A stretch of 46,977 bases of DNA. Origin: a virus. This document shows positions 1 through 46,977 of the stretch, piece after piece (position 1 is the first letter of the stretch; every line of letters begins with the position of its first letter). The notes beneath the pieces are model-generated. The model searched no databases and was not told the DNA's origin. It saw only the letters and a program-made list of their open reading frames with translations. The position numbers and the translations under genes were made by a program. The stretch is from IMG/VR virus record IMGVR_UViG_3300014556_000001. One strand, given 5' to 3'.

Positions 1-77
1 GAGTTTACTATCGATATTCTAAAAGACGATATGGAAACAGCCGTAAGAGAGTGGCTGGACTACGGCAGGCTGAGAGG
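1..77. repeat. Terminal direct repeat copy A, identical to 46901-46977. Either a circular-assembly overlap or a short DTR.
   Basis: 77/77 identity read directly. One reading frame runs through the junction uninterrupted. Confidence 0.95.
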
Positions 78-141
78 TATCGGTCAGTGGCGTAACAGCG
101 GCAAAGGCCGTTTTGAGTGGGAGGAAATCGAGAATGAATAA
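1..141 (+). CDS. 3' end (46 codons plus stop) of the junction-spanning early protein that starts at 46442. It has a RAMP-like glycine-rich C-terminus.
   Basis: Frame 1 is open from base 1: EFTIDILKDDMETAVREWLDYGRLRGIGQWRNSGKGRFEWEEIENE, with TAA at 139-141. It is in frame with 46442-46977 through the overlap, for a total of 199 aa. Confidence 0.8.
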   Translation, partial: EFTIDILKDDMETAVREWLDYGRLRGIGQWRNSGKGRFEWEEIENE

Positions 142-700
142 GAAATTCACTGACGAGGAAATCGTAAAGGCGGCGGAATGCTGTGTAGAAAATGACTGTG
201 GGAATTGTCCCATTTTCGGGACCAGTGGTTGTAGACTCTTTTTTGCAGAGTACATAATCAATACCACCAAACCAGCATTTGATTGGGACGGATTTATAGC
301 TGGCAAGTTTACAGTTCGTCTAAAGACACAGACAGATTATGACACGTTTATGCGAGAATGCGAACAGCGTGAACTAAATTGGGGTCCAGAAAAACCTACG
401 GAAGTTAATACTTGGCCGTACTATCGTGACAGTACCTCAATACATTGCTGGTCAAAGGATAAAAAATTATCATATGGCGATTATTTATCTTCGCAAGTCC
501 CAGTTGTTGCATATTCTGATAAACAGACAGACTCACACGCAAAAGTCGGCCTAATTGGCAAGGAATTCAATAAATTGCTGTTGGATATTGCTGGATTGCT
601 TTCCACTATGGACAAACAATGTACAGCTGCATATAATGCGGGCATAAGTTGCCAGAAGTTAAAATCATTGATAAGGTCGGATGGTGAGCATAGTGACTAA
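134..700 (+). CDS. Hypothetical early protein with a Cys-rich N-terminus
   Basis: ORF track 113-700. ATG 134 follows GGGAGGAA and overlaps the upstream stop. Cys cluster: ECCVENDCGNCPIFGTSGC. Confidence 0.75.
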   Translation: MNKKFTDEEIVKAAECCVENDCGNCPIFGTSGCRLFFAEYIINTTKPAFDWDGFIAGKFTVRLKTQTDYDTFMRECEQRELNWGPEKPTEVNTWPYYRDSTSIHCWSKDKKLSYGDYLSSQVPVVAYSDKQTDSHAKVGLIGKEFNKLLLDIAGLLSTMDKQCTAAYNAGISCQKLKSLIRSDGEHSD

Positions 701-3178: not shown

Positions 3179-3957
3179 TACAGCTTACAAGTGAGAACTA
3201 CTTCTCCCAGCAGGCAAACCTTGAGTACATGAGCTGCTCACAGTTCAAGAGCTTCTGTGACTGTGAGGAAAGAACCCTTGCGGATATCGCTGGTGATTAC
3301 AAGCGTGACAGTTCAACTGCTCTGCTCGTAGGCTCATACGTTGACGCTCACTTCGAGGGAACGCTTGACGTTTTCAAGGCTCAGCACCCAGAGTTGTTTA
3401 AGCGTGACGGAACGCTTAAGGCTGATTATGTACAGGCTGAGAGTATTATCCAGCGTGTGGAGAATGACAAGCTGTTCATGAAGTATATGGCAGGCGAAAA
3501 GCAGGTCATTATGACGGGTAAAATCGCAGATGTACCATACAAGATAAAGATAGACAGCTATCACCCTGACAAGGCAATCGTTGACCTAAAGGTCGTCAAG
3601 GACTTTGAAAAGCTTTGGAACGATACAGAGAAACAGAAACAGAGCTTCATTCGATACTGGGAATATGACATTCAGGGAGCTATCTATCAGGAAATAGTTC
3701 GTCAGAATACAGGCAAAAAGTTGCCGTTCTTTATAGCCGCCGCCACAAAAGAAAAACACACAGATTTTAACGTGTTCGCTGTTCCGCAGGAATGGCTTGA
3801 CGAAAAGCTTGCATTTGTCGAGGAACGCACACCGCACTTTGCAAGGTTGAAAACAGTCGAGGATCCAGCCGAAAGGTGTGAGAGGTGTGATTGGTGCAAG
3901 GACACCAAGATACTTGACAGAATAGTTGACGCAAGAGATTTGGAGGACGGCATATGA
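3175..3957 (+). CDS. PD-(D/E)XK exonuclease (RecE/ExoVIII- or Cas4-like) with candidate Fe-S cysteines
   Basis: GTG start overlaps the upstream stop. Motifs: IVDLKVVKD, YDIQGAIYQ, N-terminal CSQFKSFCDC and C-terminal CERCDWC. Confidence 0.75.
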   Translation: MIQLTSENYFSQQANLEYMSCSQFKSFCDCEERTLADIAGDYKRDSSTALLVGSYVDAHFEGTLDVFKAQHPELFKRDGTLKADYVQAESIIQRVENDKLFMKYMAGEKQVIMTGKIADVPYKIKIDSYHPDKAIVDLKVVKDFEKLWNDTEKQKQSFIRYWEYDIQGAIYQEIVRQNTGKKLPFFIAAATKEKHTDFNVFAVPQEWLDEKLAFVEERTPHFARLKTVEDPAERCERCDWCKDTKILDRIVDARDLEDGI

Positions 3958-4194
3958 GAAAGTAGGAAGTCTTGCTGATATCGTGTAGCGTGAAAACACT
4001 TGGACACAACCTCAACCTGCTAATTGGTGCAGGTGCAAAAATATGTCACATAGAAAGAGCGTCAACTTTTGGCCGCTTTTTGGGAGATGAGTTTGCAGGA
4101 TATGTAATCATTTATGAAATTTCTTTTTGCAAGCGTCATAGCAAAAAGTATATGCAGACTATTAAACACTTGCGCGGAAGATTGGAGGATACAA

Positions 4195-4674
4195 ATGCTT
4201 AACAAAGTCATTTTAATGGGTAGAATTACCCAGGAGCTTGAACTCAAGCAAACAACAAACGGAACAGCAGTGCTGTCATTTAACGTAGCCGTTGACAGAA
4301 GCTACACTAAGCAGGGCGAAGAGAGACAGGCGGATTTTATCACCTGCGTTGCGTGGAAAAAGACTGCTGAATTTATCAATAACTATTTCGGCAAGGGTAG
4401 AATGATAGCCCTTGAGGGACAGCTAAGAAGTCGTACATACGATGATAAAAACGGCACAAAGCACTATGTGACAGAAGTTTACGTTGATAACGTTTCATTC
4501 ACAGGTGAACCAAAGCAGGACGGAAACAGCTCAGCTTCGTCACAGAGCGCACCACAGCAGAATACACCGCCACAAAATCAGCCTGCACCAAGTCAGAATA
4601 ACTCACCTGCAACGCAGAGTCTTGGTATTGACGGATTTGAGGAAATATTCAATGGCGACGATGTACCGTTCTGA
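4195..4674 (+). CDS. ssb: Single-stranded DNA-binding protein
   Basis: MLNKVILMGRITQELELKQTTNGTAVLSFNVAV OB-fold start, a Gln/Pro/Ser-rich linker and an acidic tail DDVPF. ATG 4195 follows GGAGGA. Confidence 0.9.
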   Translation: MLNKVILMGRITQELELKQTTNGTAVLSFNVAVDRSYTKQGEERQADFITCVAWKKTAEFINNYFGKGRMIALEGQLRSRTYDDKNGTKHYVTEVYVDNVSFTGEPKQDGNSSASSQSAPQQNTPPQNQPAPSQNNSPATQSLGIDGFEEIFNGDDVPF

Positions 4675-7163: not shown

Positions 7164-7336
7164 GAACGAGGACAGGAAGATGCAAGAAAACAGGCAAGTG
7201 CATATATGCGACTGAAATATATGGTGAGAAGTGTTGCGGATATTTGCTTGCAACGGGTGAGAAAAGAAACTGCCCTCCCGATAACTGCAACAAGTTCAAG
7301 AGCATAAAACAGTTTGAAAGGAGATTTGACAGGTGA
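7160..7336 (+). CDS. 58-aa Cys-rich mini-protein (too short for the ORF track)
   Basis: ATGA overlap with the upstream stop and GTGA overlap with the downstream start. MRTRTGRCKKTGKCIYATEIYGEKCCGYLLATGEKRNCPPDNCNKF. Confidence 0.5.
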   Translation: MRTRTGRCKKTGKCIYATEIYGEKCCGYLLATGEKRNCPPDNCNKFKSIKQFERRFDR

Positions 7337-16568: not shown

Positions 16569-16640
16569 GCGACTATCACTCACACGCTGAGCGACTATCA
16601 AACGACTATCAAACGACTATGAAACGCACACGGAAACGTA
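16569..16640. repeat. Four CGACTATCA-type repeats merging into AAACG phased about every 11 bp
   Basis: GCGACTATCA at 16569 and 16591, CGACTATCA at 16603, CGACTATGA at 16614. AAACG at about 16600, 16611, 16622 and 16634. Confidence 0.6.
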
Positions 16641-21071: not shown

Positions 21072-21260
21072 ATGGATAATAGGCGCATACATAATAGGCG
21101 CATAGATGTATATTGTCCGAGCTGTGCGGCGGCAGGCATAAAGCGAAAGCTTATGGAAGTCGATAATGACGCAAAGGGCGTTATCTATCCATACTGCAAG
21201 GGCTGTAAGAAAAACGTTGCAGTTAAATTGCCCATAAGTGCTGAAAAGCACCTCCGTTAA
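21072..21260 (+). CDS. 62-aa cysteine-rich KTR-like zinc-ribbon mini-protein
   Basis: VYCPSCAAAGIKRKLMEV...YPYCKGCKKNVAVKL: two CxxC pairs spaced as in the Cys-rich KTR family. RBS AGGAGGG. Confidence 0.6.
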   Translation: MDNRRIHNRRIDVYCPSCAAAGIKRKLMEVDNDAKGVIYPYCKGCKKNVAVKLPISAEKHLR

Positions 21261-28450: not shown

Positions 28451-28786
28451 ATGGCAAAGACAATCAATTTCAATTACGAAGGTCAGCATTACGTTCTTGA
28501 ATTTTCCAGAAGAACAGTAAGACAAATGGAAAATAACGGCTTCACTCTGAATGATCTCTCAGACAAGCCAATGAACACTCTGAACGAGCTTTTTGCAGGT
28601 GCTTTCAAGAAAAATCACCGCAACGTAAAGCCTGAACAGATTGACAAGATGCAGGCTCTTTTCGCTGATAAGGACAAGCTTATAGAGACTCTGTTCTCAA
28701 TGTACAGCGAAACTATCGAGACACTGACAACAAATGACCCTGCTGAGGATAGGGAAAATTTGATAACCTGGAGCGTTGGAGAGTAG
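28451..28786 (+). CDS. Tail assembly chaperone (gpG-like)
   Basis: RBS AGGAGGA. Precedes the tape measure. Slippery A_AAT_TTG at 28756-28762. Confidence 0.65.
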   Translation: MAKTINFNYEGQHYVLEFSRRTVRQMENNGFTLNDLSDKPMNTLNELFAGAFKKNHRNVKPEQIDKMQALFADKDKLIETLFSMYSETIETLTTNDPAEDRENLITWSVGE

Positions 28787-29169
28787 ACAACGTTCCAAAA
28801 GAGCAAACATATACTCAAACATTTCTAAAAGCTTTGCCATTGTATTTATCCATAGGCATGACTGCCAAAGAGTTTTGGGAAGGTGACTGTTGTTTGGCAG
28901 TTGCCTTTCGCAAAGCTGATGAGATGACACAAAAAGCAAAGAGAGAAAAGGACAATTTCAATGCATGGCTAACGGGACTATATGTTCAAGAAGCTATCAC
29001 AAGTTGTTTTTCAAAAGACGGCAAATATCCCGATAAACCGCATGACATTTTCAAAGCCGACAAGGATCCTGAAAAAACGTATGATGACATCATGCGAGAA
29101 AATGCGGAGAAATTCAGGAAATTTGCAGAATCATTTAATAAAGGAAGGGCGGCAAATAAGGGCAATTAA
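28753..29169 (+). CDS. -1 frame extension of the chaperone (gpT-like part of a G-T fusion)
   Basis: The -1 frame is open from 28753 and overlaps the last 34 nt of the G-like ORF. There is no RBS for an independent start (track ORF 28834-29169 uses TTG). Confidence 0.5.
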   Translation, partial: GKFDNLERWRVDNVPKEQTYTQTFLKALPLYLSIGMTAKEFWEGDCCLAVAFRKADEMTQKAKREKDNFNAWLTGLYVQEAITSCFSKDGKYPDKPHDIFKADKDPEKTYDDIMRENAEKFRKFAESFNKGRAANKGN

Positions 29170-39472: not shown

Positions 39473-39615
39473 ATATAAGATTGATTTTTGTGCATATTTT
39501 CAGAGCGAAATTTCAGCGTGCACAAAATTCCGTGTCATATTTCATGTCATATATTTATTATTTTTGGTGGTATTTTATTATTTCTACGCATATTTTAGCA
39601 TTTTAGAACATAAAG

Positions 39616-39720: not shown

Positions 39721-40749
39721 CTATTTTGCATTTTTCGTGTCATGTTTTGTGTCATATACGCTTTGAAAATAGTCGTCGATAACCTTATCGACACGTTGGC
39801 GATCATCATCGAAAGTCTGCTGATAAACTGACCTTAGTGTGCTGGTATTACTCCAACCACCCCGCTCCATTGCGTATATATCGGGAATATTCAGCTTCGC
39901 CATAACGCTGGCGCTTATGTGTCTCAGGTCATGAAAAGTAATGCAATACCCTGCTGACCTTGTAATTTTTACGAGCTTGTCATATATTTGCTTAGGGTTG
40001 TACTGCACAACATAATCATCAAGGTTGAGCTCCAATGCGTCAATCAGCTCAACAAGTGGCTTGCCAAGTCTTACTTGTCGATTACTCTTATATGTTTTCG
40101 CTTGCTTCTTTACTGTCAGCTTATTGCCAACCATAACACGCACCTGTGACAGTGTTAAGATATCTCCAGCTATATCCTTGCGGCGTATTCCCTGTATCTC
40201 TGACATTCGCAATCCGCCCCACACTGCAAGCAACACTGGTATTTCAATATCTGTGCCACGAAACAGTTCAATAATTGTTTCGGCGTCAGGCAAGCTTTTA
40301 AACGTTCTAGTTTTTTGTGGCAAGCGTATTTTGCCCAATTTTATATCAACATCATGATAGGTCATTATCGCTGTGAAGAAGCCATATATATTTCTTACAG
40401 TTTTCGCAGATCTTACGACAGCAATGCTGTTCACCCAATCTTGCACAAGTTGTGGCGTAATATCATTTAACCGCATATTTGCAAATCTGTCAAAATGATT
40501 TTTAAGTTCCGACTTATATTCATGTATCGTGGTAGGCGATAGAACAGGTGTTTTAATCTCAATGTATTCCTCTGCAGCTTGCTGAAACGTTTTTTCGTCC
40601 TCGCTTTGTTGAGTGCTGTTCAGCCACTCTGCTGCCATTAACTCGGCTTCTTTCTTGGTTTTGGCCGTGAACGATTTGTACTTCCCTGTTGCTTTGTCAT
40701 ATGCCCTAACACGATAGTTTCCGCTAGGCAGTTTTTTTGCTGTTGCCAT
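39721..40749 (-). CDS. int: Tyrosine integrase
   Basis: N-terminal KLPSGNYRVRAYD SAM-like start, GLRMSEI (Arg), ITFHDLRHISAS (HxxR), GGWSNTSTLRSVYQQ (Tyr). Confidence 0.9.
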   Translation of the reverse strand: MATAKKLPSGNYRVRAYDKATGKYKSFTAKTKKEAELMAAEWLNSTQQSEDEKTFQQAAEEYIEIKTPVLSPTTIHEYKSELKNHFDRFANMRLNDITPQLVQDWVNSIAVVRSAKTVRNIYGFFTAIMTYHDVDIKLGKIRLPQKTRTFKSLPDAETIIELFRGTDIEIPVLLAVWGGLRMSEIQGIRRKDIAGDILTLSQVRVMVGNKLTVKKQAKTYKSNRQVRLGKPLVELIDALELNLDDYVVQYNPKQIYDKLVKITRSAGYCITFHDLRHISASVMAKLNIPDIYAMERGGWSNTSTLRSVYQQTFDDDRQRVDKVIDDYFQSVYDTKHDTKNAK

Positions 40750-43793: not shown

Positions 43794-44108
43794 TTAAAGT
43801 GAATTTAAAAATTTCTTGAAAATTTCCCTTTTCTCGTCTGAAAGACTCCTGATCAACTCAATTATTTTTATTTCCTCTGCAGATAGCTCAATGCCTGCAG
43901 AGGTTTTTTCTTTGCCTGTTAAAAGATAATCGGTAGAAACGCCAAAGTAATTGGCAATTAACTGTAGTGTTTCTGCATTAGGTACACTGCCACGCTTTTC
44001 CCAATTGACAAAAGAGTTTTTACTAAGCTTTAAATCTGTAAGCATTTTGTTCTTGCTTATTCCCTTTTCGTGAAGCAATTCTGTTAATGTACTTATAAAT
44101 TCATTCAT
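43794..44108 (-). CDS. CI-like XRE-family repressor
   Basis: MNEFISTLTELLHEKGISKNKMLTDLKLSKNSFVNWEKRGSVPNAETLQLIANYFGVSTDYLLTGK. Divergent from the Cro-like gene. Confidence 0.85.
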   Translation of the reverse strand: MNEFISTLTELLHEKGISKNKMLTDLKLSKNSFVNWEKRGSVPNAETLQLIANYFGVSTDYLLTGKEKTSAGIELSAEEIKIIELIRSLSDEKREIFKKFLNSL

Positions 44109-44180
44109 TTTTATGACCGCCTTGTAAATTATGTAACAAATGAACAAATATATCGGTCTTATTTTGTAATATACGCCAAT

Positions 44181-44234
44181 ATTTCATCAAATGATGAAAT
44201 AAGCCTTGACATTCCTCAATTGATGAAATATAAT
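44181..44234 (+). promoter_or_regulatory. Genetic switch: operator palindrome plus a rightward consensus promoter with a second operator in its spacer
   Basis: ATTTCATCA-aa-TGATGAAAT at 44181-44200. TTGACA at 44206-11, 17-nt spacer TTCCTCAATTGATGAAA, TATAAT at 44229-34. Confidence 0.6.
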
Positions 44235-45686: not shown

Positions 45687-45860
45687 ATGGCGGATAGTAC
45701 ATTCATAGCCTGCATAATAGGCGCAACAATCGTGATTCTGGCGGTTTTCTATGCCGTGATACTGTTCATAGCATGTATTATAGACCAGCACAAATGGGAA
45801 CAGAAACGTAGTAGCTGTGATGATGATAGCCGTGACGAAAACAGCGATGGCATAGTTTAG
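45687..45860 (+). CDS. 57-aa single/double-TM protein with an acidic tail
   Basis: MADSTFIACIIGATIVILAVFYAVILFIACII. ATG 45687 is in frame within track ORF 45534-45860. Confidence 0.55.
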   Translation: MADSTFIACIIGATIVILAVFYAVILFIACIIDQHKWEQKRSSCDDDSRDENSDGIV

Positions 45861-46441
45861 ATTTGCAATGCAACGGATTTGCTATGAATAGCATTGGCTA
45901 TGGCAAAGCGAACCTGTGAACGACTGCGAAATGCGAAGGTGTTGATTTGAACAGCAAAGCAACGGCCTAGCGTCGATAAGCAACGGCAAAGCTGTGAGGT
46001 GAGGAGCTAGGGCTAGGTATGCACAGCACCGTTTAGATAGGCAAAGGCGAAGTTAAACTGAGTTTCGATAAGCAATGGCGAGGCGAAGTTTTGACACGCA
46101 ACGAGAGGTAAAGGCATAGCAGGGCGCAGATTGGCGGGGTTATGCAAAGGAAATGCAATTCGTGGAAACGCAATTCGATGAAACGCAATGGCCTGGCAAA
46201 GGATTGACACGCTAGGGCTAAGTACAGCGTAGTGCGGCTTTGATTAGCCATGGCATTGCTACACACGGTGCGGCCATGCATGACACAGCAACGGAATAGC
46301 AAAGGCATTGAGAAGCATAGCGACGCAAGGGCATAGCAGTGATTAGCAAAGGAACTGCAGTGACTAGCAAAGGCGTAGTTCGGCACAGTATGGCGTCGAA
46401 AAGCAAGAAAAAATAAATTTAACGTAACGGAGGTCAAAAAC
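45861..46441. repeat. Non-coding degenerate repeat array rich in GCAA(A/C/T)GG motifs (candidate iterons/origin, or a repeat RNA)
   Basis: 21 GCAA tetramers on the + strand in about 545 nt. 19-nt family at 46036, 46067 and 46362. Three tandem 15-mers at 46149-46191. T-poor. No + strand ORF. Confidence 0.85.
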
Positions 46442-46977
46442 ATGAAAAAAATCAAAGTAAAGTTGACGTTCACCGAAGAGATTCTGGGAACGGCAAACGC
46501 AACAACCACAATTCACGATGAGTACATCGCATCGAAAGCACCCGATGCAAAGAGCCGTGAGGAAGAGATAGCCGCGCTTGGCGTGGCTGAGGTAGTTGAA
46601 AAGTCTATGACGGTATTCCCGACACTGGAAGACGGCACACCATTTCTGTGGGACTATCAAATCAAAGGATTTTTCAAGGACGCTTGCGGTGTTCTGAAAA
46701 AGGTATCAGGCACGGCAAGCTCAAAAATCAAGGCGTACAAGAAAGAGATTGACGGGCTTGTCTTCGTCGAGGAGCGCAAGATACCATACGAATTCAAGGG
46801 CGGTATGGGCGAGTGTCAGAGGCCGTTGAGAGCAAGCACGCCACAGGGCGAACGTGTTGCACTGGCACATTCTGAGACAGTGCCTGCAGGAGCGACAGTC
46901 GAGTTTACTATCGATATTCTAAAAGACGATATGGAAACAGCCGTAAGAGAGTGGCTGGACTACGGCAGGCTGAGAGG
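46442..46977 (+). CDS. 5' part of the junction-spanning early protein (199 aa in total) with RAMP (Cas7/Csm3)-like sequence landmarks
   Basis: RBS ACGGAGG upstream of ATG 46442. MKKIKVKLTFTEEILG..., TPFLWDYQIKGFFKDA. Continues into 1-141. Confidence 0.8.
   Translation, partial: MKKIKVKLTFTEEILGTANATTTIHDEYIASKAPDAKSREEEIAALGVAEVVEKSMTVFPTLEDGTPFLWDYQIKGFFKDACGVLKKVSGTASSKIKAYKKEIDGLVFVEERKIPYEFKGGMGECQRPLRASTPQGERVALAHSETVPAGATVEFTIDILKDDMETAVREWLDYGRLR
46901..46977. repeat. Terminal direct repeat copy B (identical to 1-77)
   Basis: 77/77 identity read directly. Confidence 0.95.

Follow-up and report, generated by a model that had tools for sequence, protein, structure and literature searches.

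A probable one-G VIPR locus in a temperate phage of gut Clostridia

Described systems and the locus

VIPR (Viral Interference Programmable Repeat) systems were first described in 2026 as a minimal, one-protein form of RNA-guided DNA binding, and were proposed to predate CRISPR (10.64898/2026.04.26.720920). They are mostly encoded by phages and consist of Vipr, an ancestral RAMP protein of ~20 kDa, and of vrRNAs, in which 9–16 YNNGG pentamers with conserved GGY and hypervariable NN are followed by a structured 3′ tail; these RNAs are encoded in long intergenic regions flanking vipr (10.64898/2026.04.26.720920). VIPR binds double-stranded DNA, where each NN pairs and one target base is skipped, and its natural targets are competing phages and satellites (10.64898/2026.04.26.720920). 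Seven types have been distinguished, with the repeat variants NNNGG, YNNNG and NNNNG and with different array layouts, including 'staggered' and hammerhead-interspersed ones (10.64898/2026.04.26.720920). The discovery paper collected 2,664 Vipr proteins from NR and established experimentally that the system of Escherichia phage SUSP1 is a programmable DNA binder (10.64898/2026.04.26.720920). In cryo-EM, one protomer occupies each repeat, with six protomers per turn and five when DNA is bound; SUSP1 Vipr contacts G1 by H17 and D177 and G2 by R138 and W178, and its pocket for Y3 includes R179 (10.64898/2026.04.26.720927).

Here we analysed a stretch of viral DNA of 46,977 nucleotides (IMG/VR record IMGVR_UViG_3300014556_000001, called the window below), in which a first-pass annotation, made from the letters of the sequence, had described a non-coding repeat tract ahead of a RAMP-like gene. 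The window is a circularly closed phage contig. Bases 1–77 repeat 46901–46977 as a 77-nt direct overlap, and the genome measures 46,900 bp once this terminal overlap is removed. The phage is temperate, with integrase, CI-like and Cro-like genes present in the window. In our reading, the tract and the gene following it are very likely a VIPR locus, in which a guide-RNA array lies beside a small Cas7-like protein (Table 1). The locus is very probably a one-G (YNNNG-type) variety of this system, carried by a temperate phage of gut Clostridia, and the system class itself has already been published.

Table 1. Features of the putative VIPR locus and of its surroundings in the window
Feature	Position	Strand	Remark
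Integrase gene	39721–40749	−	
CI-like repressor gene	43794–44147	−	faces the consensus promoter at 44206–44234
Early promoter, sigma-70-type, TTGACA-17-TATAAT	44206–44234	+	12/12 consensus match
Putative vrRNA-type array	45861–46405	+	~105 degenerate units, one continuous tract of ~545 nt
A-rich leader with RBS GGAGG (46429–46433)	46406–46441	+	RBS 8 nt before ATG
vipr-like gene, first 536 nt	46442–46977	+	199-aa single-domain Cas7-like RAMP (modelled fold)
vipr-like gene, end	1–141	+	across the circular junction; stop at 139–141
Gene of 188-aa Cys-rich protein	134–700	+	start overlaps the vipr-like stop by 8 nt

The closest exemplars are the type II VIPR systems of SUSP1 and of a Pseudomonas fulva prophage. 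With these the locus shares a ~20-kDa single-RRM RAMP protein with G-loop and thumb, tandem pentanucleotide tracts that directly flank the gene on the same strand, and a conserved G-pyrimidine scaffold with variable bases in between. Conservation extends to W and R in the G-loop and to R-P in the thumb, and there is neither a CRISPR array nor any other cas gene. Other features differ. The window repeat keeps one G (x-G-Y/NN, that is YNNNG) where type II repeats have GGY/NN, and the array is continuous, with 170–730 nt in the clade, whereas VIPR arrays are built of tail-capped units of 9–16 repeats. Moreover, an extra G occurs every ~5–6 units and the period is 5.16 instead of 5.0 nt. No pseudoknot, tail or vap homologue was recognised in the window, and the hosts are gut Clostridia.

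The Cas7, Csm3 and Csf2 backbones of class 1 CRISPR systems have the same fold and provide the closest solved structures, and we propose that the window protein would likewise polymerise along a guide RNA, with a thumb that breaks the guide at a fixed period. However, class 1 systems combine a 6-nt period with an arbitrary spacer, whereas here a period of ~5 nt is written in the RNA sequence itself. They also need repeat-spacer arrays, Cas6/Cas5 processing and multi-subunit effectors, in contrast to the single protein of the window. Assignment to class 1 CRISPR-Cas was rejected: there is no fixed-length repeat-spacer array, only one RAMP gene is present, and its neighbours are recombination genes. 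The first-pass annotation had called the tract not CRISPR-like, which is right in form, since the window holds no repeat-spacer array and no other cas-like genes, but this description misses what is probably the guide array of a CRISPR-related VIPR system. Filaments of type IV-B Csf2 also resemble the proposed system, as a Cas7-like protein on non-crRNA RNA, encoded by a mobile element and acting without nuclease; these filaments reportedly form together with a Cas11 partner, on cellular RNA of heterogeneous kinds, whereas the window has a dedicated periodic RNA sequence beside the gene (PMC7937560).

The array and the RAMP protein

The tract at 45861–46441 lies between a 57-codon ORF ending at 45860 and the start codon (ATG) at 46442, upstream of which stands GGAGG. 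As first described, it contains no + strand ORF, and the three + frames have 14, 13 and 12 stops. A hidden gene with TAG or TGA reassigned was considered and excluded, because all three kinds of stop codon break each + frame. ORFs of 65, 158 and 62 aa run across the tract on the minus strand; these are a composition artefact, because this strand is A-poor and has few stop codons. The T-poor and purine-rich character of the tract was confirmed (A 33, G 30, C 18 and T 19 %), whereas the 7–10 T per 60-nt line that had been given for 46081–46380 are actually 9, 11, 16, 7 and 10.

The observation of an unusual tract is real and far beyond chance. GCAA occurs 21 times on the + strand, where its copies had been placed, against 3 occurrences of TTGC, and this is the highest count of all 581-nt spans (mean 5.9, sd 2.9); the assumed expectation of ~2 was too low, as it ranges from 3.5 by region composition to 5.9 by window density. 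Several longer motifs had also been proposed. A 19-nt consensus fits at 46036 and 46362, but its copy at 46067 has a 5-nt insertion, and of three tandem 15-mers two follow the proposed consensus and one does not. TRF found a 15-nt array at 46148–46189 (2.8 copies) and a 21-nt array at 46325–46378. The motifs GCTAGGGCTA(G/A)GTA (46006, 46211) and TTGACACGC (46091, 46204) are present as reported, and both are absent from the rest of the window.

These motifs lie within a much more regular pattern. Autocorrelation of the tract gave peaks at lags of 5, 10, 15/16, 21, 26, 31, 36 and onwards, with z up to 7.3. In Fourier spectra, the power of G at 5.14 nt was 30x the mean, and the power at a period of 5.16 nt was 23x baseline, with no power at the 6.0-nt period of Cas7 or at the helical 10.3–10.5. 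When the whole window was scanned in 120-nt steps, only 45840–46420 passed the periodicity threshold. Segmentation into units by dynamic programming anchored on G, applied to 45846–46440, yielded 98 pentamers and 17 hexamers, with C (54 %) or A (24 %) prevailing at position 1. The phase begins at 45846, a few codons inside the upstream ORF. The consensus of the array is [C/A]-N-N-N-G, or x-G-Y-N-N in VIPR notation, and 16 units between 45861 and 46405 carry an extra G, mostly as CAA[A/C/T]G-G.

Because segmentation yields [C/A]NNNG units together with extra-G hexamers, GCAA(A/C/T)GG, which had been taken as the repeat unit, turns out to be the commonest unit (CAANG) plus an extra G in a degenerate NNNNG pentamer array. 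The mean period is 5.16 nt because an additional G is inserted about once in 5–6 units. Spacings of around 10, 21 and 31, which had drawn attention, are indeed present, but they are multiples of this 5.16-nt period. Among hexamers pooled from 111 arrays, 88 % start with the extra G; they are 4x likelier after a CAANG unit, and their commonest recurrence is every 5 units. This regular extra G may correspond to the 'staggered' 1-nt arrays of the VIPR preprint (fig. S18) or to a register shift once per turn.

Comparison with relatives of the window array showed that the positions of the unit do not vary equally. The fractions of polymorphic sites at positions 1–5 were 0.44, 0.57, 0.51, 0.65 and 0.22; thus polymorphism is lowest at G (0.22), higher at C (0.44) and highest at the three N (0.51–0.65). 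Among close relatives this 5-periodic variability is not visible site by site, and it emerges only after polymorphic sites have been pooled according to their place in the pentamer. In very close relatives, changes of the array mostly concern whole blocks and not point substitutions. Mosaic breakpoints against relatives lie near 45985/46005, 46155, 46206, 46294 and 46405, and this suggests that the array is composed of modules of ~110–150 nt. Discrete vrRNA units, a conserved 3′ tail, a pseudoknot or a recurring long element were looked for in the tract and not found. In addition, Rfam at gathering threshold gave no family in the window, and no hammerhead or other ribozyme; the tract had no excess RNA structure (folding z −0.27 on the + and −0.12 on the − strand), and its DNA matched none of 50,697 phage records.

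The leader between array and gene (46406–46441) is conserved at 80–100 % in relatives with differing arrays. Behind it, the reading frame joined from 46442–46977 and 78–141 encodes 199 aa. Searches with this gene against Pfam, PHROGs, NCBIfam and PDB sequences returned nothing, or only a 13-bit hint of Csm4. An AF2 model based on an alignment of 75 diverse members reached pLDDT 89.7 and pTM 0.82. It has a beta-alpha-beta-beta-alpha-beta core, a long beta-hairpin at 125–149 and a G-loop GIGQWRNSGKG at residues 179–189. The best PDB matches in Foldseek were all of Cas7-type backbone, with type VII Cas7 (8z4j_J, E 1e-8, TM 0.58) followed among the top matches by III-A Csm3 and IV-A Csf2 (6ifl_F, 8s37_E). 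The top match in BFVD was a gut-phage protein labelled 'Cas system-associated RAMP superfamily protein' (TM 0.9). As judged from the model, the 199-aa protein is a RAMP of Cas7/Csm3-type fold, and the early description of the adjacent gene as RAMP-like was correct. The family is large: over 8000 clusters at 90 % identity share words with the protein, and 1752 clusters at 50 % identity match it at E <= 1e-3. Two members, P0170 (458 aa) and P0214 (432 aa), have twice the normal length, with two stretches in each that match the query, and may be Vipr-like proteins that arose by tandem duplication or fusion.

The SUSP1 locus itself was examined in NC_028808.2, where vipr lies at 28474–29061 (−) with YNNGG tracts on both sides. 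The period of these tracts is 4.94–5.02, against 5.16 in the window. By tblastn, no link was found between the 199-aa family and SUSP1 Vipr. In hhalign, the profile of the window family aligned with SUSP1 Vipr (YP_009199429.1) at E 3.4e-5 (prob 72 %, 173 columns) and with a 39-member SUSP1-family profile at E 4.9e-5 (prob 68 %, 183 columns). Both alignments are full length and colinear and include the G-loop G-x-G-[QD]-W-R...G-R-F. Hence, the profiles argue for homology of the 199-aa protein to SUSP1 Vipr with moderate, not overwhelming, strength.

The aligned positions also suggest how the two proteins differ in RNA recognition. At the G1 contacts of SUSP1, the window family has T/S in place of H17, and Q in place of D177 in 72 of 75 members. 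The equivalents of W178 and R179 are retained in 74/75 and 69/75, respectively. The thumb R-P arginine is found in 75/75; it is equated with R138 by the R-P motif common to both proteins and by the position of this motif in the hairpin of the model, and not by hhalign columns. The loss of first-G contacts fits the one-G repeat (x-G-Y/NN), a consistency check that is reported for this clade in neither preprint.

The early promoter is the likely source of a transcript that would run through the array and the vipr-like gene, as predicted from sequence: no terminator-like site was found on the + strand between the promoter at 44206–44234 and position 46442, and the tract contains neither an internal promoter of consensus quality nor a terminator on this strand. 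The RAMP gene of the window is surrounded by a recombination and replication module with RecT, exonuclease, SSB and helicases. The 188-aa gene that overlaps its stop is a possible accessory (vap-like) candidate. This overlap and the N-terminal CCx4-5Cx2CP motif are retained in the close clade only; the protein has 20 homologues in total, family searches with it gave no match, and its AF2 model is unusable (pLDDT 52). No accessory gene conserved across the RAMP family was found, and the neighbours in distant relatives are unrelated.

Some other features of the genome were recorded in passing. The 840-aa protein encoded at 7333–9855 matches a SNF2/DEAD-type helicase (phrog_16) and, in the C-terminal half, DNA methyltransferases. 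A short distance outside the integrase gene, an AT-rich array at 39538–39597 contains three 20-nt tandem units (TATTTCAGGTCATATTTTAT) and may represent attP or arm-type integrase binding sites. The late region has near-perfect intergenic tandem repeats at 16592–16626 (11 nt x 3.2) and 21076–21104 (15 nt x 1.9).

Relatives, target searches and alternative readings

Comparison with related phages, which the first-pass annotation had proposed, gave a consistent picture, with the tract kept beside the RAMP gene in 80 viral loci and in 33 of 37 loci from bacterial genomes. In all 80 IMG/VR relatives (L001–L080), a T-poor tract lies ahead of the RAMP gene. Array length ranges from 170 to 730 nt among phages whose RAMP proteins are 97–100 % identical, and blocks of ~110–150 nt have been gained or lost between the arrays of near-identical phages. 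All 51 distinct viral arrays tested peak at 5.10–5.22 nt or at the harmonic of 2.58, and none at 6.0 or 10.3. Moreover, the same phase profile (G, not-T, A-rich) is common to lineages at 70 % protein identity whose arrays are unalignable.

The bacterial-genome loci, with proteins of 41–70 % identity, come mostly from MAGs of gut Clostridia (prophage-like regions), and in addition from Coriobacteriia, Planctomycetota and others. In 33 of these 37 a periodic tract lies directly upstream and/or downstream of the gene, at −675..−1 or +550..+1200, and such tracts hardly occur elsewhere within 2.5 kb on each side. All of 135 tracts are G-rich on the strand of the RAMP gene, and the tract is located downstream of the gene, and not in its leader, in roughly half of the diverse relatives. 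Neighbouring genes vary, with a DnaC-like gene in L063, Gp157/Erf/SSB/RusA in L082 and the beta clamp in L081. Because the tract follows the RAMP gene by flank and strand whatever the neighbours are, the two appear to form one module of RNA and protein.

Variants of this arrangement were also seen. In some close relatives (L004, and similarly L006 and L009 among others), a 68-aa gene with its own RBS (2433–2639 in L004) sits in mid-array and divides it in two; this gene may have an accessory role or be a moron-like insertion. In L081, whose protein is 46 % identical and whose gene lies near the beta clamp, the T-poor flanks at 3354–3518 and 4170–4482 have no clear pentamer periodicity, and the same holds for L110, L114, L120 and L123. 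In some members of the RAMP family the repeat may be more degenerate, or the array may have been lost.

Searches for targets gave no signal. When 111 arrays were compared by seed-and-extend with DNA of related phages and prophages (1.05 Mb), allowing NN or NNN pairing and skips of 0–3 (nine rule/skip combinations), scores in this small database equalled those of shuffled arrays. A search of local DNA (0.57 and 1.05 Mb) with exact gapped k-mers returned only unmasked array homologues or chance 16-mers without extension. Exact-pattern scans of IMG/VR, a weak test as they demand an exact match, gave 10, 0, 101 and 0 hits, none of them extending and all at chance level.

This outcome would suit a leader RNA that binds protein and has no guide function, in which the Cas7-like protein coats its own 5′ leader and reads no target; such a complex could serve in autoregulation of translation, in protection of the early transcript or as a scaffold filament. 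The array of the window does lie directly ahead of the RBS of the RAMP gene. In addition, near-invariant CAANG makes up ~17 % of units, which is odd for a guide, and type IV-B Csf2 filaments reportedly assemble on heterogeneous non-CRISPR RNA (PMC7937560). However, a downstream tract, as in about half of the diverse relatives, is no leader of the gene. Moreover, the N positions vary and the arrays turn over by blocks, as an array carrying specificity would, and the homologous SUSP1 system is experimentally a programmable DNA binder. We consider this reading improbable, although it is the strongest of the competitors to a guide array.

Still less probable is an iteron-type origin or a centromere-like site for partition, whose double-stranded DNA would be recognised by an initiator of the phage or a ParB-like protein; this had been the leading candidate role at first. 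Iterons are 17–22 bp long and helix-phased, adjoin AT-rich DNA and are tied to an initiator gene. Like the iteron arrays of plasmid and phage origins, the tract consists of degenerate direct repeats in a non-coding stretch close to genes for replication; it heads a RecT/exonuclease/SSB/helicase module, and some of its spacings are near 10, 21 and 31 bp. However, it has none of the helix phasing, the AT-rich DNA or the initiator linkage of such arrays: its period is 5.16 without power at 10.3–10.5 bp, and neither an AT-rich unwinding element nor notable inverted repeats were found at the tract. Above all, the tract travels with the RAMP gene, on either flank but always on the strand of the gene, and not with the neighbouring replication genes, which argues against a role in replication or partition. 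In L071, direct and inverted repeats of GGTAACC / CTCGGTTAC flank an AT-rich stretch at 2230–2440, upstream of a small gene and the tract. Because this origin-like iteron and AT-rich region adjoins the pentamer tract, the tract and the likely ori of L071 are separate.

A functionless minisatellite, grown by replication slippage in an intergenic gap, would account for the local 15- and 21-nt tandem duplications and for the wide length variation among close relatives, but it is scarcely credible, since period, phase, strand and the link to the gene are retained at protein identities as low as 41 % and in several bacterial phyla, even where array sequences are unalignable.

A one-G clade and its implications

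Among these readings, a VIPR locus is the one that we prefer. Joint action of a transcribed repeat RNA and the neighbouring RAMP-like protein had been the fallback idea of the first-pass annotation; the present analysis supports this idea, in which transcription itself is predicted. By analogy with the systems of the VIPR preprints, the array would be transcribed on the + strand, probably within the early transcript that runs rightward. Molecules of the 199-aa Vipr-like RAMP would then polymerise on this RNA, with one protomer per ~5-nt unit, and each protomer would grip the conserved G of its unit and the following C/Y. The variable bases between the grips would be presented for gapped base-pairing with double-stranded DNA. 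Targets would most likely be competing phages or prophages, which may be silenced or otherwise interfered with.

More speculatively, this very large clade, carried for the most part by gut Clostridia phages, might represent a distinct VIPR architecture, defined by a one-G scaffold, the loss of first-G contacts, continuous tailless tracts and an extra G per 5–6 units; we put this forward tentatively and regard it as less likely than not. The spacing of the extra G (5–6 units) equals the 5–6 protomers per helical turn reported for the SUSP1 filament. Hence, the extra base might be a register correction made once per turn, or a boundary between short staggered guides. If this is true, the decoding rule and the functional guide length could differ from the published code of NN and a 1-nt skip.

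For the family as a whole, the data extend what is known from NR. A VIPR-type locus proved recognisable to a reader working from raw sequence alone. The family is frequent among temperate phages whose hosts are Clostridia of the human and animal gut, and its size in metagenomes (1752 clusters at 50 % and >8000 at 90 % identity) far exceeds the 2,664 proteins from NR. Arrays of up to 730 nt, with turnover of blocks between near-identical phages, are the expected signature of conflict between phages. The VIPR class itself is already published, and it is the size of the clade, the architecture of its arrays and the matched change of protein and RNA that stand out. With a one-G repeat beside a protein devoid of the first-G contacts, the clade provides a natural experiment on the code, and it could broaden the rules by which programmable Vipr tools are designed.
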